Shown here: positions 1,648-64,000 of the stretch, piece after piece | Position numbering within the stretch: position 1 is the first letter of the stretch | Layout: every line of letters starts with the position of its first letter | IMG/VR virus record: IMGVR_UViG_3300026522_000001 | Coordinates: 54,806-118,805 of that record | Strand: one strand, 5' to 3' | Length of the DNA: 64,000 nucleotides | From: a virus | Position numbers and translations under genes: made by a program | The notes under the pieces: model-generated | Database searches by the model: none | What the model was told of the DNA's origin: nothing | What the model saw: only the letters and a program-made list of their open reading frames with translations

Positions 1648-3204
1648 TCAACAGTATTTGAAAATTTCTTCGACAACGTCATAGCGGGACTTATTCAGCT
1701 GTCTGCAAAAGGCTTTATATGGGTCAAGTTCATTACAACAAACCATATCTACAAGCTCTTTACTAAATCCACTCAAAAGAATTACACCATTTCTTGAGCT
1801 TTGAATTGGGACTGTACCATCATTATAACAAGAGACATTCCAAAAAATGAGTTTAGGAAGTTCATACCCACAATCCTTATACTTCTTCTCAATATTCTCA
1901 AATAATGTGTCATTTTCTTGTATATTTTGATTGCGTAATGGGAATCCAAATGCATCTGTATCACACATAGCAGTATTAAACTGCATATCAGAAATGATAA
2001 GAACATTCTTTGGCATATCTGCCTGTGTCGCATTACACTTCTTTGCTGTTTTTAGGATGAGGTCAAATACAGATTCAACATTAGTTGTACTACATTCTGT
2101 ATTTTTCATTAGCTTTTCTATATTGTCCCTTAATGTATTGCAGTTTACTGTAATCATCTTTGGGTTATTAGAAAATGCCATGATTTTATCTTTGAATACA
2201 CCTGTATTATTTTTTGCACAATACAGAGCAATTGAATCCCCAATTTCCATCGCTGAAACATTTTTTGATACATATGATAACATAGAGCCACTTCCATCTC
2301 TAACAACAAGCGTATCAGCAAATGTTTTTGGTTTCTTTTGAGATTCCCAAAGACTCTCTAGGGTATTGTCAACAGGTTTCATTCCAATGCCAAAAAAATT
2401 AGCATCTTTCTCATATGCATGAACTATGTCATACAAAAACATAGAATTAGCATTTATCTTATTTTCGCCACGAGCTACATCAATAAGATATTCATTTCTT
2501 CTAGCAAAATCGTGCTTAAGAAAAGAATCCTTATACTTGATATTTGCTAAAGATGGTACATGAGAGTAATCTACTTTATCCCATTTATTTGAACTTAACT
2601 TTACCTCTAAAACATCTAGCCCTTTTCTTAGTTTAGAAAGTGTTTTTCTATACTGTGAAGGAGACATTCTAAAATATTTTCTAAGTTCATTACCAACTGC
2701 TACTGTTTTCTTTGAAGATGTATTGATACTCGGCATCCATTTTGCTAAAAGACTGTATGGCTTTCCATTGGAATAATTATATAAGTCATCATAAAGCTGT
2801 TCTTGCAAAATCCCTGCAATATATATTTTTAAGTCATCATATTTTGTATTTGCAAAAAGATAAATATAGTCGTCCCATCTGCCAAATTCAGGCAAGTCAA
2901 CCGTGTAAATAAATCTATAGAAAATAGACATATCGATTTCTGTAAGATGAAGTAGCAACTTTCTAAAAGTATCTCTTTCACCCATTCCTTCTCTGACATC
3001 TCTCAAAAAGAGAAGGAATCTTAATGTCATAGCTTTATCTTGATAATATGCTTCATCAAAAAGAGAATAATCTATTGGATTTTCCCTAAATGATGAAACT
3101 TTATAGAAAAAATCTAAAAGTTTACTGCCTGTTGTAGCATAAGCTACTGCACCATTTTCTGTTGTTGTTTTTACATTGTTTTCAAGATTTTCAATAAAAT
3201 TCAT
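1648..3204 (-). CDS. DUF2828-like protein with C-terminal vWA/MIDAS domain (Ro60-like architecture)
   Basis: N-terminus TENGAVAYATTGSKLLDFFYK..LRFLLFLRDVREGMGERDTFRKL matches the DUF2828 signature as I recall it. VVRDGSGSM is a DxSxS MIDAS motif. Confidence 0.6.
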   Translation of the reverse strand: MNFIENLENNVKTTTENGAVAYATTGSKLLDFFYKVSSFRENPIDYSLFDEAYYQDKAMTLRFLLFLRDVREGMGERDTFRKLLLHLTEIDMSIFYRFIYTVDLPEFGRWDDYIYLFANTKYDDLKIYIAGILQEQLYDDLYNYSNGKPYSLLAKWMPSINTSSKKTVAVGNELRKYFRMSPSQYRKTLSKLRKGLDVLEVKLSSNKWDKVDYSHVPSLANIKYKDSFLKHDFARRNEYLIDVARGENKINANSMFLYDIVHAYEKDANFFGIGMKPVDNTLESLWESQKKPKTFADTLVVRDGSGSMLSYVSKNVSAMEIGDSIALYCAKNNTGVFKDKIMAFSNNPKMITVNCNTLRDNIEKLMKNTECSTTNVESVFDLILKTAKKCNATQADMPKNVLIISDMQFNTAMCDTDAFGFPLRNQNIQENDTLFENIEKKYKDCGYELPKLIFWNVSCYNDGTVPIQSSRNGVILLSGFSKELVDMVCCNELDPYKAFCRQLNKSRYDVVEEIFKYC

Positions 3205-3468
3205 CTTTTTTCTTCCTTCCTAGATACAAAATAATTATCCCATATTATTATTTATTATTGATTGCTGTATGTATCTAAATAAATTAAAATTATATTATAA
3301 ATACTTTAGGTTATGAATACCAAAACAAATCAATACAATTCCTGAAATTAGAATAAGACTAACTAGCATTATATATCTCCAAAAAGCAATTTGCTTTAAC
3401 ATCTATTGGTTTCATCATTTTGACTACTTATGCTATCCACCACGTAAAGGTTGATGTTACTGGATAAC

Positions 3469-3549
3469 TGCCCCTGACAGGATTCGAACCTGCACGTCTT
3501 TCGACAACGGATTTTGAATCCGCACTGTCTTCCATTCCAGCACAAGGGC
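3469..3549 (-). tRNA. tRNA-Leu (anticodon CAA), class II
   Basis: Acceptor gcccttg/caggggc, anticodon arm gcgga-ttcaaaa-tccgt, long variable arm tgtcgaaagacgt, T arm gcagg-ttcgaat-cctgt. CCA is not encoded. Confidence 0.85.
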
Positions 3550-3640
3550 AATAATTGGTTTTTTCGTTTTTTCCTTAACGACCTAGCTTTTCAGATGCGT
3601 TTTAGTGCTGGCCAGTCACTTCAAGCATAGTCCTATCCGC

Positions 3641-3760
3641 TTGACACTCCCCATGCCTAAAGGCAGGGGATTCTTGGTTCAACGACCAGTGCACCGCTTC
3701 CAAGGAATTGGTGTCTTACATGATTTCCCCAAGCGTGAATTCCCGTGTGTCCCACGGTAT
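3641..3760 (-). ncRNA. orphan TnpB omega-RNA-like scaffold, copy A
   Basis: 120 nt, about 85% identical to 59985-60104 with compensatory changes. It shares the blocks tgtaagac / gtgca.t / gttga.accaa.a / ggagt.tgtcaa with the 3' UTR of tnpB-2. It begins at the predicted TSS of a consensus promoter and ends in hairpin + TCAA. Confidence 0.6.
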
Positions 3761-3766
3761 GTTTAT

Positions 3767-3795
3767 ATTATAACACACCCTAAAACACATGTCAA
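3767..3795 (-). promoter_or_regulatory. consensus promoter for ncRNA copy A and tRNA-Leu
   Basis: Minus strand reads TTGACA tgtgttttagggtgtgt TATAAT. The predicted TSS falls on ...ATACCGTGGG, the first conserved bases of the repeat. Confidence 0.65.
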
Positions 3796-45803: not shown

Positions 45804-45839
45804 TTTACACTCCCCTAGCTGAAGATAGGGGTTTTACGG
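45804..45839 (-). repeat. member of the CCCC-stem-loop-GGGG(A) terminal-hairpin family
   Basis: Plus strand reads ccccta-gctgaaga-tagggg. The flanks ccgtaaaac / agtgtaaaa match the copies at 62440 and 60625. Confidence 0.5.
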
Positions 45840-45920
45840 TGGTTTGTATAATAACAACCTCACTTTCTTTCTTCCTCCCTTTCGATGATTCTACTATTGC
45901 ATATTGCATAGGATAGGACA

Positions 45921-54080: not shown

Positions 54081-54832
54081 CAAAGTCCTTTACTTTTTAA
54101 TTTTTCTTCAACAATAGTTCTTAATTCTTGTTTCTTTGCTTGTGGTAAATCTAAAGTATATTCATATTTCCTAACTTGCTCTTCTTTATTAGCAAATTCT
54201 TTAAATAATAATTTTTCTGCATAATATCTTTTATATACCGCATTTTTTAATTCTTTTTCATAACCTAGATGACACCTTTTTTCTTGTAATCTTATTTCAG
54301 AATCATACCTATCATGGTATTTATCATACCTTACACCAATAAAATTTGATGTATTTCTTTTCATATATGATTTATTTAATACATTTTGCCCTTGTGTACA
54401 AATACGTAAATTACATTTTCTATTATCAAAAGCATTACAATTAATATGGTCTACTACATAACCACTATCAATTTGTTCTCTCGTAATTCCAATAATAATC
54501 CATGATAAATCTTTTTGTGTTCCTTTGCTTGGTAATCCTGTTACTACATGGTCATGACTTATTCTCCATTTATGATATTTTACTTTTTCAATATCATCAA
54601 AGTCAATAATAAACTCACCATTTTTTACATTCTTTTGATTATATAAATTAAACGTAACAGTATTTGTATCATAGTTTATTGTGTAATCATTTAGGTCTGA
54701 ATTTGTTCTTTGAATATTATCTAAGAATTTACCATATTTTAATAATTGATGCATGTGTTTACTGCATAAGCAATAACCATATAAACTAATTTTCTTTTTT
54801 AATTCTCTACCACAAATATCACATTTGTACAT
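54074..54832 (-). CDS. HNH-AP2 homing endonuclease (intron-encoded)
   Basis: VVDHINCNAFDNRKCNLRICTQGQNVLN (HNH) and FIGVRYDKYHDRYDSEIRLQEKRCHLGY (AP2 domain). The stop overlaps the 3' splice site by 7 nt. Confidence 0.8.
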   Translation of the reverse strand: MYKCDICGRELKKKISLYGYCLCSKHMHQLLKYGKFLDNIQRTNSDLNDYTINYDTNTVTFNLYNQKNVKNGEFIIDFDDIEKVKYHKWRISHDHVVTGLPSKGTQKDLSWIIIGITREQIDSGYVVDHINCNAFDNRKCNLRICTQGQNVLNKSYMKRNTSNFIGVRYDKYHDRYDSEIRLQEKRCHLGYEKELKNAVYKRYYAEKLLFKEFANKEEQVRKYEYTLDLPQAKKQELRTIVEEKLKSKGLWQ

Positions 54833-58827: not shown

Positions 58828-59067
58828 TTATTCTCTTTTTACAAGAACATTATTTTGTGTTCTGATAATTTTCCATGCAGGGTCAATCTCACACTCAAAA
58901 TCTGTTACGGAATCAGTTAATTCTTCTTTATTGAATCTTTTATCCCATCGTGGTACTACAATAGAACCGTCCTCCTTGTCTACATATACAATATCATCTA
59001 CTTTAATACTTCCGTCTGTGTTACATCTTGTAACCTTGTATGCAACATCGGGCTTAATATACATCAC
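58828..59067 (-). CDS. hypothetical small protein
   Basis: ORF track. 4-nt overlap with the upstream gene. Confidence 0.55.
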   Translation of the reverse strand: MMYIKPDVAYKVTRCNTDGSIKVDDIVYVDKEDGSIVVPRWDKRFNKEELTDSVTDFECEIDPAWKIIRTQNNVLVKRE

Positions 59068-59336
59068 TTACTATCCTCCTTATCTTTTTCATTCTCTTTG
59101 TCATCAGAAGTATTGTTATTATAGCACAAATTGATAAATTCTTCAACTTGTGAGTCAATCTGTGAATTAGCCCTGTCATACAGTTCTCTTGTTGCATTTC
59201 CAACATCATCCTTTTTATCTAGTGTTGCAGTATACTCTGTTTCAAAACTAACAAAAGTATCTACTGTTGTACCAACCTTAATATGCTCTGTACGCTTACT
59301 AGATACTCTTACTTCTTTAATTTCCATAATAAACAC
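59064..59336 (-). CDS. hypothetical protein
   Basis: ORF track. RBS GAGGTG upstream. Confidence 0.55.
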   Translation of the reverse strand: MFIMEIKEVRVSSKRTEHIKVGTTVDTFVSFETEYTATLDKKDDVGNATRELYDRANSQIDSQVEEFINLCYNNNTSDDKENEKDKEDSK

Positions 59337-59344
59337 CTCATGTT

Positions 59345-59695
59345 TTATTTATTCTTGTTTTTATTCTTTTTGAATGTTACTGCAAATGTATGTGTTGTTT
59401 CAATAGCATCTTGGAACAGACTAGCATCTACTGTTCCATTGTAGATGTCGTTCTCTAGCTTTTCTTCATCTACTGTTTCTTTAAGTAGCCAATTAAGTTT
59501 ATTCTTTTTGATGATGTCAACACACTTGTCTGTATTAAATGACTCTCTTACCCTATCTTTTACACAAGCAATATATTTATCTCCTGCATAGTCACCTACA
59601 CCATTAGCCTTTAATTCTTTTTTTGCTTCATCTAGCTGTTTCTTTAGTGTGTTAATCTTTTTGTTTAGTTCATATACTTCATCAATGTTAATCAT
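59345..59695 (-). CDS. hypothetical coiled-coil protein (start moved to MINIDEVYEL)
   Basis: The ATG follows GGAGGAG. Confidence 0.55.
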   Translation of the reverse strand: MINIDEVYELNKKINTLKKQLDEAKKELKANGVGDYAGDKYIACVKDRVRESFNTDKCVDIIKKNKLNWLLKETVDEEKLENDIYNGTVDASLFQDAIETTHTFAVTFKKNKNKNK

Positions 59696-59787
59696 TATAA
59701 TCTCCTCCATGTGCACCTACAAAAAATGCAATTACTAAAGAACCACAAAAACTACCTGCAAAGAATGTTAAAACATAAGATAGCAAT

Positions 59788-59970
59788 TTATACACCTCTG
59801 CTAAAGATAAATGTAATGAACATTTTTAATGTATATAAAGAAATATACATACAATTTTTTAGCATCTGCACAAAGATGTAAATATTCTTTGTACTTTCTG
59901 TCATCTCACAAAGTAAGCACATTCTATTGAGTTTACTTTTTAGAGAATTTAGAGTATTGTTAGTTTCCAT
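59788..59970 (-). CDS. hypothetical small protein
   Basis: ORF track. The strong RBS AAAGGAG lies inside the guide-like tail of ncRNA copy B. Confidence 0.45.
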   Translation of the reverse strand: METNNTLNSLKSKLNRMCLLCEMTESTKNIYIFVQMLKNCMYISLYTLKMFITFIFSRGV

Positions 59971-59984
59971 ATATTACTCCTTTT

Positions 59985-60104
59985 TTGACACTCCCCACGG
60001 CTGAAGCCGGGGGATTCTTGGTTCGACAACCACTGCACCGCCTCCGAAGAATTGGCGTCTTACACGATTTCCCCAAGCGTGAATTCCTGTGTGTCCCACG
60101 GTAC
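59985..60104 (-). ncRNA. orphan TnpB omega-RNA-like scaffold, copy B
   Basis: Homolog of 3641-3760. Compensatory stems are cggc/gccg vs tgcc/ggca, and ttc[ttcg]gag vs ttc[cttg]gaa. It ends ggggagtgTCAA. Confidence 0.6.
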
Positions 60105-60111
60105 TAGAGAT

Positions 60112-60140
60112 ATTTATGCTACTTTGGGTTTCTCTTCCAA
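60112..60140 (-). promoter_or_regulatory. possible promoter for ncRNA copy B
   Basis: TTGGAA, a 17-nt spacer, then ATAAAT. This places the TSS on GTACCGTGGG, the same position as in copy A. Confidence 0.35.
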
Positions 60141-60148
60141 AGCGTGCT

Positions 60149-60592
60149 TCATAAAATTTCAACATTCATGTATCTTTTACCAAATCTCATACATTCTTGT
60201 TTGCTGTTCATATAGATGTCAATTGTGTTTGGTACACCGCATCTATCTTTTACTGTGTACACAACACCATTGATTCTTACCTTTGTTCCTAGTGGTAAAT
60301 CGTAACTAGCTACTGCACCAACATGAGCTTTTTCACCGTTTGCCATCGTATCACCAGGTGTATATGCGTCACCTACTGTGTATGCTGTTACATGGCATGA
60401 GATTACTTGTTTTCTATTTTGCTCCTTGTTGTTAGTTTCTTGTGTCTTCTTTTCCTCCAATTCTTTTTCCATCAGTTCTTTTTCAAGTGAATTAGTTTTA
60501 TAGATTTGTTCTTCTAATTCTCTTGAAGTTTCTTTTAGTTCATCATATAACTCATCATTTAATTCATTCGAGTAGTTATAATGATTTTTCAT
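60149..60592 (-). CDS. 3D-domain (MltA/RlpA-like) protein with coiled-coil N-terminus
   Basis: VTAYTVGDAYTPGDTMANGEKAHVGAVASYDLPLGTKVRINGVVYTVKDRCG..IDIYM follows the 3D-domain pattern. There is no obvious RBS before the ATG. Confidence 0.6.
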   Translation of the reverse strand: MKNHYNYSNELNDELYDELKETSRELEEQIYKTNSLEKELMEKELEEKKTQETNNKEQNRKQVISCHVTAYTVGDAYTPGDTMANGEKAHVGAVASYDLPLGTKVRINGVVYTVKDRCGVPNTIDIYMNSKQECMRFGKRYMNVEIL

Positions 60593-60616
60593 TTCTGTGA
60601 GCTGTTGATTTGATTC

Positions 60617-60760
60617 CTGAACCTCCCCATAGCTAAAGCTAGGGGATTCGTAAGAAGTTTAGTTTTTTATAACTCTTATTCTTACTGGTGTATTCAGTTC
60701 ACCTCTACTGTATAGTCCACTTAAGGACACAACATTACTTTTTCTTAATATGTTTAATGC
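60617..60760 (-). ncRNA. predicted omega-RNA / right-end region of tnpB-1 (bounds approximate)
   Basis: The 3' end of tnpB-1 plus 42 nt reads ..cagtaagaa-[stem]-cgaaTCCCC-tagc-ttta-gcta-t-GGGGAggTTCAG, the same architecture as copies A and B. Confidence 0.45.
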
Positions 60761-61900
60761 ACCATTTACATCTGCATTAAGTAGTATACCACTAGAAGTT
60801 TTATACAAGCCGCGCTTTATACGCTTTCCGCTAAAAATATGTTGTTTAGAATCACCATATACAGGAATCTCATCTTTATCCCAAAAACTTGCTTTTGATG
60901 TATAGCTTTCTTCTTGTTCTATCATATCAATGCCATATATTTTACATTGATATTCTAGCTTTTGTTGCAACTTATAAAAAGGCATTTGAACAAATATCTG
61001 ATTGTTTACCTTCCCTAAATTACTTTTCTGCTGAAATCCTTTATTATTACCAATAACAAGATTTCCTATATTATGCTCTAAACAGTAATTTATTATCTTT
61101 TTAGCTGTCTTACCTAGATAATCCCTTACACGATTTTCTCGTTTTCTAAGTAGTCTTGCTTGTCTTTTTGTTAGTGTCTTACTTAACTTCTGTTTGTCTT
61201 TAATGCTTTGCAATCTAGCATTTTCTTTATTATACCATTGGTTATAGCTTTTCAGCTTTTTCCCATCAAGTATAAAAGAGTCACCATCTGATGTTACACA
61301 AGTACAAAGATTGTTTACTCCTAAATCAATGGCTAGTGCTTTTGTTTTATCTAAATTTATTTTTGAAACATCTTTTACTTCATAAGTATAAACAATTTCA
61401 AAAAACCTAGCATTATATTTTGGGATTATTTTTATTTCTTTGACTTTCTTATCAGATAATATCGAAGGCATTTGAATATAAAATTTTTTATGTGTTTTTG
61501 CATATTCCCTTGAATATGGCATTTGAAACTTACCATTACGAATATTAATCTGTTGAATTATTAGCTGATTATATCCCTCTTTTGGTAAGTAATGCGGAAT
61601 ATTGACTTTATGAGCTACCTTCTTACTTTTTAAGCTACCAAAGAATGACTTAAACTCTGCATCAACCTTTCTCATAATCTGTTGTGCCATACTTGCTTGC
61701 AAAAGTTTATAATTATCACTTGTCTTTAGTGTCTTGTAGACCTCATTGTAATTTAGATAACTCTTATCACTGAAAAATTTCTGTCGTATCTCGTATAAAA
61801 CTTGATTTTTAAGATTTTTTGAAATACGACACTGTTCTTTAAGGACATTATATTCTTCCTTTGACAAATGGTTAAGCTGTTGTTTTACTACTAAGTACAT
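60659..61900 (-). CDS. tnpB: TnpB-family RNA-guided nuclease, variant without zinc-finger cysteines (tnpB-1)
   Basis: RuvC-I ALAIDLGVNNL, RuvC-II MIEQEESYTSKASFWD, RuvC-III LLNADVNGALNILRK. N-terminal OrfB helical region. Confidence 0.85.
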   Translation of the reverse strand: MYLVVKQQLNHLSKEEYNVLKEQCRISKNLKNQVLYEIRQKFFSDKSYLNYNEVYKTLKTSDNYKLLQASMAQQIMRKVDAEFKSFFGSLKSKKVAHKVNIPHYLPKEGYNQLIIQQINIRNGKFQMPYSREYAKTHKKFYIQMPSILSDKKVKEIKIIPKYNARFFEIVYTYEVKDVSKINLDKTKALAIDLGVNNLCTCVTSDGDSFILDGKKLKSYNQWYNKENARLQSIKDKQKLSKTLTKRQARLLRKRENRVRDYLGKTAKKIINYCLEHNIGNLVIGNNKGFQQKSNLGKVNNQIFVQMPFYKLQQKLEYQCKIYGIDMIEQEESYTSKASFWDKDEIPVYGDSKQHIFSGKRIKRGLYKTSSGILLNADVNGALNILRKSNVVSLSGLYSRGELNTPVRIRVIKN

Positions 61901-61926
61901 TTACAATTTCACCTCCTCTAGTAATT

Positions 61927-61956
61927 ATTATAATACTAAGTTAGTGAAATTGTCAA
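61927..61956 (-). promoter_or_regulatory. promoter upstream of tnpB-1
   Basis: TTGACA, an 18-nt spacer, then TATAAT, followed by the RBS AGGAGGTG. Confidence 0.5.
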
Positions 61957-61995
61957 GAAAAAATTATGTTGTTAGTAAGGTTGAATACATGAACC

Positions 61996-62260
61996 CTCTA
62001 ACTTTAACCTTCTTTAGGAGGTCTAGTTCATTACAAGTCGCTACACTCGTAACAGTTCTCTTATGAACTTCCTATCATTTCTGATAGGCACAGACTATAT
62101 CTTATCCATATCATATCTCTATGACTTAGGCGAAACCACTTCCATAGCCAATAGCTTGCTATGTACTTCCCTCAAGAGGAATAGTCGTTGAAGTTTCCCC
62201 TATTCGGGGCTTACCTGCTGATTACCAATTTTTGAAATAGGAATTAGGATTTAACCTTGT
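61996..62260 (-). ncRNA. group I intron 3' core-like sequence (IA2 type), bounds approximate
   Basis: agatatagtctgtgcc + covarying hairpin + gaagttcataagagaactgt, identical 20-mer to nrdD intron 2. caacgactattcctcttgagggaagta lies at 62164-62190. Confidence 0.6.
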
Positions 62261-62439
62261 CCCATCTACTAGATTTTTTCTGTTTTCACCGCATATCACG
62301 TTTAGGCTTGTTTCATCCTTACGTTGTAGCTCTAGTAGCTTTATGGTATTCCAGCAATTCAGTTTCTTTGTTGCATGGCTACACAAAACCATGTCTACAC
62401 ACCAATTTATTGATATGCTTACCTACTTATTCCCTTATA

Positions 62440-62470
62440 TCCCCATAGCTAAAACTAGGTGTTTTACGGG
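62440..62470 (-). repeat. decayed copy of the tnpB-1-type terminal hairpin
   Basis: cctagttttagctatgggga differs by 1 nt from cctagctttagctatgggga at 60625-60645. The 5' arm is eroded (acacc for tcccc). Confidence 0.5.
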
Positions 62471-62648
62471 AATTAGTGATAACACATTCCTCCTAATACT
62501 AGATTACTTAATAGCAATCCAAAAATTATTGTTTTTTCTACCTTGTTTTTCTTGCTTGCTCTCTTTGTCATTCTCAACGCCCTTTCTGCTTGACCTACAT
62601 TTATATTACCACATAAAACAAAAAATGGCAAGGGAATTTTGCTCTCTT

Positions 62649-62762
62649 TTGACATACTCCAGGTTGAACCCGCTGAATTTTGGTATCAACAAAGACTGCA
62701 CATCTCGCGATGGTCTTACATCTTCTTCTCCAATGGATGATGCCCCACCCATATTTATAGAT
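62649..62762 (-). ncRNA. predicted omega RNA of tnpB-2
   Basis: Starts at the tnpB-2 stop. It contains tgtaagac-catc[gcga]gatg-tgcagt..gttgataccaaaa..ggagtatgTCAA, collinear with orphan copies A and B. Confidence 0.55.
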
Positions 62763-63878
62763 TTATGCTGATAAAATTCTTAAACCTTCGTCTAAGATAT
62801 TCTGTGCAGCATTTCTATCCCTATCACAATGATGTCCACAAGAAGGACAAGTCCACTCACGAATAGATAAATCTTTTATTTTTGGATTTTGATAACCACA
62901 TTTATTACACAACTGACTTGATGGATAAAATCTGTCTATTTTAACAATCTTTGTGTTAAATTGTGGTGCTACATATTCAAGTATTCTCAAGAATTCACCA
63001 AATCCATAATCTCCAACTTTCTTGCCATGTCCTTTCTGCATCCATTTCATATTCAAATCTTCAAAACAAATAATAGAATATTTTTTGCAAAGTTCTCTTG
63101 CCAATTTCCAATGATAAGCATTACGCTGATTGGTTACCTTTCGATGTAACCTTGCTAAAGCAAGTTGTGCTTTATGCCTGTTATTTGAACGTAATCTTTT
63201 TGTAAAGAGATTTCGATTAGCTTTTGCAATAGCTTTTTGCTGTTTCTTGAAAAAACTTGGTGCAATTATGTCATCTTCTTTGTTTGGTGCTACAAGCATT
63301 TTACCCTTGAAGCCAAAATCAAATCCGATGCTTTTACCCAGTCTAGGTTTAATATTAACTTCTGGCGTTTCACAAACAAGATAAACATAGAAGTCTCCAC
63401 AAGAATCTTTCTTGACAGTAAGCATTTTAATCTTACCCTCTACTTCTCTTGACTTGAAAAACTTATATTTGTTCTTAGCAATCTTAATAGTATTATCTTT
63501 AATAGCGTTTTTACCTACTTCATCATAAGAAAATGAACAATACTTTCTATAAGGCTTAAATTTTGGCGGGGATGTTTTCTTTTTTCGTTTTAGATTTCCC
63601 CAAAATAATTTATAGCCATTATCTATTCTACACACGACATCATGAATAGCATGAGATTGTAAATCTTTCCAATAAGCATACTTATCTAGTTTTTTGAGCT
63701 TAGTAATATGCTTTTGCAGTCTAAATTTATTCAAAGATTTATGATAAAGTTTCCAATATCGCTTATGGAGAGCAATGCAATGATTATATATCTTGCAAGC
63801 TACCCAAAGCTGATATTGTAACTTCTTATTCTTCTTGGAATTATATAGCTTAAATTTATATGTTTTCACATTGCTCAC
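62763..63878 (-). CDS. tnpB: TnpB (IS200/IS605 OrfB) RNA-guided nuclease, classical type (tnpB-2)
   Basis: RuvC-I SIGFDFGFK, RuvC-II ICFEDLNMKWM, zinc finger CNKCG..CPSCG, RuvC-III DRDRNAAQNI. Confidence 0.9.
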   Translation of the reverse strand: MSNVKTYKFKLYNSKKNKKLQYQLWVACKIYNHCIALHKRYWKLYHKSLNKFRLQKHITKLKKLDKYAYWKDLQSHAIHDVVCRIDNGYKLFWGNLKRKKKTSPPKFKPYRKYCSFSYDEVGKNAIKDNTIKIAKNKYKFFKSREVEGKIKMLTVKKDSCGDFYVYLVCETPEVNIKPRLGKSIGFDFGFKGKMLVAPNKEDDIIAPSFFKKQQKAIAKANRNLFTKRLRSNNRHKAQLALARLHRKVTNQRNAYHWKLARELCKKYSIICFEDLNMKWMQKGHGKKVGDYGFGEFLRILEYVAPQFNTKIVKIDRFYPSSQLCNKCGYQNPKIKDLSIREWTCPSCGHHCDRDRNAAQNILDEGLRILSA

Positions 63879-63955
63879 CTCTTGTTTGATATTATATCTA
63901 TTTATAAACTACATCTATCCCTGTGTCTAAAAGCAGCGGCTTGCGGTACAGAAAT
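63879..63955 (-). ncRNA. group I intron 5'-end-like sequence upstream of tnpB-2
   Basis: cataaatttctgtaccg..ttagacacaggg parallels the first 45 nt of nrdD intron 1 (ctaaattctgccg..tgtcacaacaggg). It begins at the stop of a frame entering from the window edge. Confidence 0.4.
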
Positions 63956-64000
63956 TTATGACATTAACATTTTAGTTAATGATGCAATAGATATATTATT

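Follow-up and report, generated by a model that had tools for sequence, protein, structure and literature searches.

The 64,000-nucleotide (nt) stretch of viral DNA analysed here (IMG/VR record IMGVR_UViG_3300026522_000001, positions 54,806 to 118,805; hereafter the window) contains two copies of a sequence resembling an omega-RNA scaffold. The question raised by the second of them, copy B (59985-60104, minus strand), is whether it is a guide RNA kept in use by a phage or the remains of an insertion sequence (IS). An earlier reading of the letters alone (the sequence-only reading) had favoured the former. Our comparisons with related elements and related phages indicate that copy B is very probably a truncated, immobile and non-autonomous right-end relic of an IS200/IS605 element, transcribed only by read-through and without a function of its own. 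The window has 31% GC and five tRNA genes, nearly all of its genes lie on the minus strand, and no near match to it was found among GenBank phages; it behaves like a large phage genome.

Copy B and copy A (3641-3760, minus strand) share 105 of 120 bases (87.5%), which bears out the roughly 85% identity reported earlier, and the identity falls to chance level just outside both ends, where the flanks are unrelated. The GC content is 57% in copy B and 52% in copy A, and a 22-mer common to both has no third site in the window, with 0 matches expected by chance. The repeat is real and sharply bounded. An unfiltered search of the window with a covariance model of the scaffold family (R1) scored copy B at 134.1 bits and copy A at 133.7 bits; copy B is a 120-nt omega-RNA scaffold that forms the right end of an IS605-family element and ends in ..GGGGAGTGTCAA, and copy A is a second orphan scaffold of the same family. 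No Rfam family was found for copy B in scans of the whole window at the gathering threshold and of positions 59000-64000 at an E-value threshold; the same two scans also overlooked a group I intron that was visible only in a 600-nt scan. Compensatory changes had been claimed for three stems. The claim holds for the terminal hairpin, in which two pairs are fully compensatory (CCCC-CGGC/GCCG-TGGGG in copy B, CCCC-TGCC/GGCA-TGGGG in copy A), but not for the other two stems, which changed on one side only (G.U to A-U, and U.G to U-A). Several G.U pairs form on the minus strand only, and the tnpB of intact relatives is on the minus strand too, so the proposed minus polarity is borne out. Single-sequence folding of the minus strand gave z-scores of -0.26 for copy B, -1.8 for copy A and -0.06 for a more distant scaffold, copy C, and the plus strand of copy A gave -3.3; these minimum free energy z-scores are uninformative on structure or polarity.

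An exact 22-mer search of IMG/VR returned two contigs. One of them, L002, carries an intact element in the order left-end hairpin, a gene for a 136-amino-acid (aa) Y1 transposase (tnpA; Pfam Y1_Tnp, E 5e-45), an intact 396-aa tnpB (HTH_OrfB_IS605, OrfB_IS605 and Cas12f1-like TNB) and, directly after it, the scaffold. Window positions 59984-60159 are 98.3% identical over 176 nt to L002 1544-1719, the 3' end of this element, and the two scaffolds themselves are 99.2% identical, being 1 nt apart. At copy B, tblastn gave a match to residues 383-396 of the L002 TnpB, and the remnant of the deleted gene (60105-60150, minus strand) consists of the last 11 codons (KHALEEKPKVA), the TAA stop codon at 60114-60116 and a 9-nt spacer. 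Because 36 nt of tnpB coding sequence have been kept, together with this level of identity to the intact element, copy B is a tnpB 3' tail plus a 120-nt right end that was truncated recently. The 64-kb window contains no L002-type tnpB beyond the 14-residue tail and no Y1 tnpA; with the cognate tnpB not found in the window, the description of copy B as an orphan stands.

The scaffold family was surveyed by a 20-mer scan with one genome per species, which gave 20 loci, and by a protein-based scan of IMG/VR, which gave 40 tnpB loci. Named records among the 20-mer loci were mostly Selenomonadaceae (Selenomonas ruminantium, Mitsuokella jalaludinii, Anaerovibrio). At no fewer than 10 loci, in Selenomonas, Mitsuokella, Anaerovibrio and viral contigs, the scaffold begins 13-19 nt past the stop codon of an L002-like tnpB, and the tnpB of these linked loci was verified with Pfam (OrfB_IS605 and Cas12f1-like TNB). 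Identity between scaffold copies stops at ..GTGTCAA in all of them, which is the transposon right end. More distant TnpBs, 41-49% identical, have recognisably homologous scaffolds at the same position, and the isolated Enterocloster phage CB473P3 shows the same arrangement of tnpB followed by scaffold. The scaffold is the canonical omega-RNA, and also the right end, of an IS605 family found in Selenomonadaceae. Aligning 28 scaffolds yielded a consensus of six helices with 31 pairs, 14 of which show double-sided changes. Cells were paired in 96.3% of cases vs 87.3% in column shuffles (0 of 500 shuffles reached the observed value) and 39-50% in partner-slid controls, and the covariation score was 0.315 vs 0.119 at most. 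The identification as an omega-RNA scaffold is confirmed by the tnpB-linked copies and this covarying structure, and since the covariation stays strong with more homologues, the refutation that the sequence-only reading had proposed for itself, loss of significance on adding them, does not apply.

The same survey bears on where the covariation arose. The stem variant of copy B (CGGC/GCCG) and that of copy A (TGCC/GGCA) are each present in tnpB-linked copies elsewhere, in Selenomonadaceae genomes. The covariation therefore arose in active transposons, not in orphans, and the differences between copies A and B, which pre-exist among tnpB-linked copies, are therefore uninformative on selection in the phage. 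Copy A is closest to other lineages, from which it differs at 9-13 positions, and copy B is 1 nt from L002, so that the two were acquired separately from already-diverged active elements. The terminal hairpin is at the same time the sub-terminal hairpin of the right end, with a left-end counterpart CCCCTAGCTTTAGCTATGGGG, and it is under constraint both as DNA recognised by TnpA and as RNA.

Transcription of copy B from a promoter of its own, a weaker one than that of copy A, had been suggested on the basis of the motif TTGGAA-17-ATAAAT. This motif consists of tnpB codons and a stop codon (..ALEEKPKVA*; TTG GAA, then GCA TAA) and is identical in the intact L002 element. A sigma-70 scan of the region called 4 promoter-like sites vs 3.7 expected, and TTGGAA-17-ATAAAT was not among them. 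The putative promoter is a coding remnant and the claim is not upheld. Two further candidates at copy B were set aside: a role as terminator of the upstream gene was rejected because there is no U-tract and no terminator was called, and a 63-aa open reading frame (ORF) reading through the copy (59974-60165) was treated as spurious, having no Pfam match and overlapping the scaffold.

At its left junction copy B is preceded by TTTAT (60151-60155, minus strand), a target motif of the IS family resembling a transposon-associated motif (TAM), whose last T doubles as the opening base of the upstream gene's stop codon. In family members the left end is flanked by TTTAT or TTAT, and the published targets of group A IStrons and IS605 elements are TTGAT, ATTAT and TTTAT (PMC4227781). 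The motif at copy B fits the family rule of insertion 3' of a T-rich target without target duplication. The window reads ..ATTTTAT, then GAAGCACGC.. (the tnpB tail), the scaffold ending in GTGTCAA, and then AAAAGGAGTAATATATGG; the flank past the right end begins with AA, as expected for entry within a TAA stop codon. The 20-mer in the guide position, AAAAGGAGTAATATATGGAA (59965-59984, minus strand), is native phage DNA, as opposed to an acquired spacer, and, as had been noted, covers the GGAG ribosome-binding site (RBS) and the ATG of ORF 59788-59970. This downstream ORF (minus strand) is a real gene, encoding a 60-aa protein that is 68% identical to ORF 2901-3077 of the related phage contig L063 and has a homologue in a second relative, L074. 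In the empty site of L074 the upstream gene ends in ..GTTTTGTAA and the homologue of ORF 59788-59970 begins 22 nt later; at the same position L063 has three small genes and a third relative, L075, has at least one gene. Such empty sites, seen in related phages for copy A as well (below), show that the guides of both copies are native flanks of canonical insertions next to TTTAT and TTGAT. A search of the window that allowed up to 3 mismatches gave no further site for either guide. The uninterrupted allele for copy B is TTTAT+AAAAGGAGTAATAT..., with the guide written as a TTTAT-AAAAGGAGTAATATAT target. The comparison of window 59950-60152 with L063 1783-2874 and L075 1240-1568 shows zero, one or three small genes in relatives, the products being a membrane protein of 118 aa, a Cys-rich one of 91 aa and a third of 137 aa, and the site is a variable cargo locus.

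The position of copy B between two genes also raises the idea that it has been co-opted as a cis-acting structured 5' untranslated region or inter-cistronic element controlling translation or stability of ORF 59788-59970. In favour of this, the scaffold stops 3-4 nt short of the GGAG and some 15 nt upstream of the start codon, and it shares its strand with the genes on either side. However, L074 and L063 express the same gene without the element, copy B differs from the transposon version only by a stem-breaking change, and no terminator was called; co-option of this kind is extremely improbable.

For the relic that we favour, the following route can be proposed. A canonical IS605 element would have inserted immediately 3' of the TTTAT overlapping the stop codon of the upstream gene and then, presumably in this order, a deletion would have removed the left end, tnpA and all of tnpB but its last 11 codons, probably across the imperfect repeat AAATTTTAT / AAATATTCT. 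Through the deletion the upstream gene would also have regained a stop codon (TGA). The expected product is TTTAT, 46 nt of tnpB tail and spacer, the 120-nt scaffold and the native flank. Copy B would most likely be transcribed passively, in a minus-strand polycistronic message running from upstream promoters into ORF 59788-59970. The only activity that it could retain would be the canonical one, in which copy B, given a cognate TnpB in trans, would direct cleavage of the TTTAT+AAAAGGAGTAATAT allele.

A left-end motif search found nothing adjoining copy B, and TTTAT is joined straight to the tnpB tail. Because the left end and its hairpin were not found, copy B is neither an intact element nor a miniature one of the kind called palindrome-associated transposable elements (PATEs). 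Miniature elements do occur in the family: the left end is joined to the scaffold in L060, L049, L050 and the second copy of L004, and in L060 a similar truncation has fused the tnpB tail to the left end and its promoter, so that the truncation point recurs in this IS family. Copy B itself would be a still-mobile element of the PATE or miniature inverted-repeat type, moved in trans by a Y1 TnpA, only if it could move with no left-end sequence or hairpin, with TTTAT directly on the tnpB tail and with no Y1 tnpA in the window, and the chance of this is close to negligible. An orphan in another viral contig (L001 6009-6135) has TTTAT 2 nt before the scaffold start and is a second case of the target motif lying almost directly at an internal position; together with copy B it hints at a recurrent left-end-side deletion or an aberrant excision mechanism.

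Protein-less copies were also seen elsewhere in the family. In L047 (1313-1700), L056, L043 and L057, from Selenomonas and Anaerovibrio, and in L049 (3990-4229) and L050, left-end promoter sequence is joined to the scaffold, which always starts from the identical first base, (G/A)TACCGTGGG. The first four have in common a conserved upstream stretch, of which about 70 nt were compared in all of them, and a fully re-designed internal hairpin that still pairs; in L047 the promoter-to-scaffold distance is about 170 nt and a terminator follows directly after about 15 nt of guide. In L004 (4160-4506) two tandem scaffolds follow one tnpB, with a left-end fragment before the second, which is a mini-element inserted beside the first right end.

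The window also contains two tnpB genes, tnpB-1 and tnpB-2, and the sequence-only reading had combined them with copies A and B, as expressed orphan guide RNAs, into a small multi-guide system of the phage. Two near-intact scaffolds do share one window with two tnpB genes whose RuvC D/E/D motifs look intact (both TnpBs keep them on inspection), copy A stands behind a 12/12 consensus promoter, and copy C, which belongs to tnpB-2, and the 3' end of tnpB-1 have the same general architecture, with a terminal hairpin and a TCA(A/G) end. After copies A and B, however, the next R1 hits in the window are 60617-60713 (24.5 bits, E 5e-4) and 62649-62754 (22.5 bits, E 1.5e-3), which are the 3' ends of tnpB-1 and tnpB-2 and stop where homology to element-free relatives resumes, at 60616 and 62648. 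With a scaffold at each resident tnpB end, tnpB-1 and tnpB-2 therefore each have their own, at 22-25 bits vs 134 for copy B. The TnpB type cognate to copies A and B is 32% identical to TnpB-2, and its similarity to TnpB-1 is undetectable by BLASTP. The guides are native insertion flanks with known empty sites and no other target in the window, the promoter read at copy B is an uncalled stretch of tnpB, that of copy A is a conserved tRNA-Leu promoter found also in relatives without the scaffold, and both stem variants pre-exist in active transposons. A multi-guide system is thus very unlikely, and the claim fails on the scaffolds that the resident tnpB genes own, on the native guides and on the absence of a supported promoter at the tnpB remnant of copy B. 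The comparison of copies A and B with 62649-62762 that had been recommended does reveal a relationship with copy C, but a distant one. That copy B is not the omega-RNA of tnpB-1 is right insofar as tnpB-1 has its own scaffold; the argument used for it, an intact 3D-domain gene separating the two, did not survive, as described below.

tnpB-2 forms a separate IS605-family element (62649-63878, minus strand) recognised by Pfam and R1, composed of the gene (62763-63878) and scaffold copy C (62649-62762, ending in TGTCAA), with an approximate left boundary near 63955. In L075 this element is absent, 33 nt of other sequence stand in its place, and homology resumes at 62648.

tnpB-1 lies in an IStron of 1862 bp (60617-62478, minus strand) with a precise junction, which is absent from L063, L074 and L075. 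On the minus strand it comprises a left-end hairpin (62434-62468), a group I intron core (62071-62422; Rfam RF00028 Intron_gpI, 64.3 bits vs a gathering threshold of 50, E 4.9e-16), tnpB-1 itself (60659-61900; Pfam hits to IS605-type ORF B) and an omega-RNA and right end (60617-60713), and by inspection only a 12/12 promoter-like site is present upstream of tnpB-1. The element inserted after gTTAT and ends in GGTTCAG. It splits a phage gene. Exon 1 (62479-62571, minus strand) has 31 codons, encodes a signal-anchor and ends ..TGT TAT, with TTAT as the insertion target; exon 2 (60149-60616, minus strand) is the 147-aa ORF previously taken for an intact 3D-domain gene and, by alignment with L063, part of a 186-aa gene. 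The gene is uninterrupted in L063 (186 aa), L074 and L075, with the junction at exactly window 62479/60616, and L063 1294-1757 aligns to window 60616-60153 directly after window 62479. The exon joint would read ..TGTTAT/GAATCAAAT, and the exons joined as 62571-62479 and 60616-60149 encode a protein 92% identical to, and colinear with, that of L063. The Pfam 3D match is sub-threshold (E 0.05, 14 bits) and marks a weakly 3D-like C-terminus. Its target, terminus, size and ORF content fit published group A IStrons (PMC4227781), and the element is of that type, placed in frame in a phage gene. Its guide GAATCAAATCAACAGC.. and TTAT motif are unchanged in L063, where the site is a textbook homing target for it; the uninterrupted gene of L074 and L075 likewise has the exact TAM and guide target. 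A nested insertion was also considered, in which the tnpB-1 element would have gone into a tnpB of the L002 type and copy B would be the 3' half; this was ruled out because the window holds no other L002-type tnpB fragment and because the left-end-like hairpin at 62434-62468 belongs to the IStron, the boundaries of which are set by the empty sites.

Copy A lies between its promoter (3767-3795) and a tRNA-Leu gene (3468-3550). Two related contigs, L068 (1470-1760) and L069 (430-680), share this promoter, TTGACA-17-TATAAT with an upstream TG, as well as the 90 nt downstream of copy A and a tRNA-Leu. Where the window has the scaffold, both carry a 76-nt leader that ends in ..CCCTTGAT (TTGAT), followed by the guide of copy A with 1-2 mismatches, which is the mark left by an IS605 element entering 3' of TTGAT. 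Divergence between the window and the two relatives begins just past a common ATACCGTG, which is the scaffold start and also part of the leader of the relatives, and a deletion between ATACCGTG repeats would put the tRNA-Leu promoter directly ahead of scaffold A. Copy A, too, is thus accounted for by insertion followed by deletion, and strong expression of copy A is likely a by-product of the tRNA promoter. The possibility that the 76-nt leader is a short variant scaffold, pointing to a conserved guide-RNA gene, was rejected: R1 gave it at most 4.5 bits, it is not structured, it was not found elsewhere in IMG/VR, and its similarity to copy A is not significant without the first 8 nt.

Further observations concern the surroundings of copy A and one site elsewhere in the window. 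The tRNA-Leu(CAA) gene differs in sequence between the window and L068/L069, and the small region (window 3621-3795) is mosaic. Positions 1648-3204 (minus strand), amid the phage tRNA gene cluster, encode a 518-aa protein with DUF2828, DUF7788 and a weak VWA match, which is 88-92% identical in L068 and L069. Near a tRNA-Gln gene, a relic of about 48 nt (45804-45849, minus strand), preceded by TTATTAT, is made up of a left-end-like ACAAACCACCGTAAAAC, a hairpin CCCCTATCTTCAGCTAGGGG and a right-end-like tail AGTGTAAA; it is a minimal hybrid of the left and right ends of the same IS family.

The alleles in L068 and L069 count in favour of the possibility that copy B, and copy A with it, acts as a homing or retention guide in trans. 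L002-type TnpB from IS copies of the host or from outside the window would load the read-through RNA and cut co-infecting siblings that carry the uninterrupted TTTAT+flank allele, biasing inheritance of the locus. Besides the TTGAT and near-matching guide of copy A in those two relatives, this would suit the almost intact scaffold of copy B and the abundance of the IS605 family in Selenomonadaceae genomes, which are plausible hosts, and protein-less IS605 derivatives with omega-RNAs necessarily used in trans have been described (PMC10055086), residual canonical activity with a trans-supplied TnpB having been suggested for the omega-RNAs of PATEs in that work. The target of copy B, however, is in none of the siblings in the data, as L074, L063 and L075 differ from it at both motif and flank, and the 27-mer across the copy B junction matched no other IMG/VR contig. 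Copy B also carries a P1 mismatch and has no promoter, and the GC content of the window is 31% vs 52-57% for the element. We regard this role, the main alternative to a relic, as unlikely. Decidedly unlikely, too, is a joint claim on both copies, under which protein-less omega-RNA modules would serve the phage as weapons or drive elements, relying on TnpB borrowed from host IS605 copies or encoded outside the window and biasing recombination to its own genome, with copy A made from the tRNA-Leu promoter and released by tRNA processing and copy B made by read-through. If it were true, siblings with an uninterrupted TTGAT or TTTAT allele would be cut, the allele for copy A being that of L069 and L068.

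The state of the scaffolds themselves is consistent with relics. The one private substitution of copy B makes a C-A mismatch in the P1 stem, at a pair that is C-G in the 27 other sequences, and the private changes of copy A include an A-C mismatch in another helix; copy B would be starting to decay. Among 19 close members, broken pairs were found in 0 of 9 tnpB-linked copies vs 7 of 10 without detectable linked tnpB, which is suggestive only as a sign of decay: three of these orphans share ancestry (L043, L047, L056), some copies lie at locus edges where tnpB linkage is not assessable, and some mismatches fall in the redesigned variable hairpin and are possible alignment effects. These reservations count against a functionless relic, and so do several other points. 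Copy B is nearly intact, with 134 bits and a single mismatch, and might yet be able to fold and to be bound. The window spans just 64 kb, and a cognate tnpB might be encoded in another part of the phage genome or by the host; several copies are present in Selenomonadaceae genomes. In other genomes many orphans have one and the same first base, which could reflect selection for a functional RNA unit and not random decay, and TTGGAA-17-ATAAAT has been kept and might be a weak internal promoter in the native element.

Covariation, a promoter-like motif and a guide over an RBS had given copy B the look of a purpose-built orphan guide RNA. With these points weighed, it reads best as a freshly truncated IS605 right end, and every one of those features follows from ordinary transposon biology. 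Genome scans should allow for the fact that two copies may owe their covariation to the active elements they came from, and that the guide of an omega-RNA is the flank by construction. Three IS605-family insertions lie within 4 kb of this phage genome, one of them an IStron splitting a phage gene, and the empty sites for all three in related phages offer a convenient natural system for TnpB-driven homing between phages. The phage-borne IStron and its matched empty sites are the more useful by-products of the analysis.

TldRs are TnpB-like nuclease-dead repressors whose guides target a site elsewhere, at a promoter, and are encoded beside the nuclease-dead tnpB homologue. Copy B resembles their guide RNAs in having a TnpB-derived scaffold with a guide that overlaps the promoter or RBS region of a gene, but its guide is its own flank and recurs nowhere else in the window, it has no TldR-like gene beside it, and D/E/D is kept in both resident TnpBs. 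PATE-like derivatives (Meers 2023, PMC10055086) share with copy B an omega-RNA right end without a nuclease gene, usable only with TnpB in trans; unlike copy B, a solo right-end relic, PATEs keep both ends and are mobilisable, and true mini-elements of this family occur in L060 and L049 but are missing from the window. Group A IStrons (CdISt1-like; Tourasse 2014, PMC4227781; Zedaveinyte 2023 preprint, 10.1101/2023.11.20.567912) are the counterpart of the tnpB-1 element, not of copy B, which has no intron part: the tnpB-1 element shows a group I intron at its 5' end, an IS605-type ORF B, insertion after a T-rich motif, a TCAG end, a size of about 1.8 kb and an in-frame position inside a protein gene, and it differs in residing in the gene of an uncultured phage, with splicing that is predicted only. 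For copy B the comparison is with the omega-RNA of ISDra2-type IS200/IS605 elements (Karvelis 2021, PMC8612924; Meers 2023, PMC10055086). Unlike these, copy B, known from its sequence, keeps only the last 11 tnpB codons, with no left end, tnpA or cognate TnpB in the window; like them, it has intact relatives with the scaffold immediately 3' of tnpB, a multi-helix covarying structure, a right end with a sub-terminal hairpin and TCAA terminus, a guide made of flanking DNA, and insertion 3' of a T-rich pentanucleotide.

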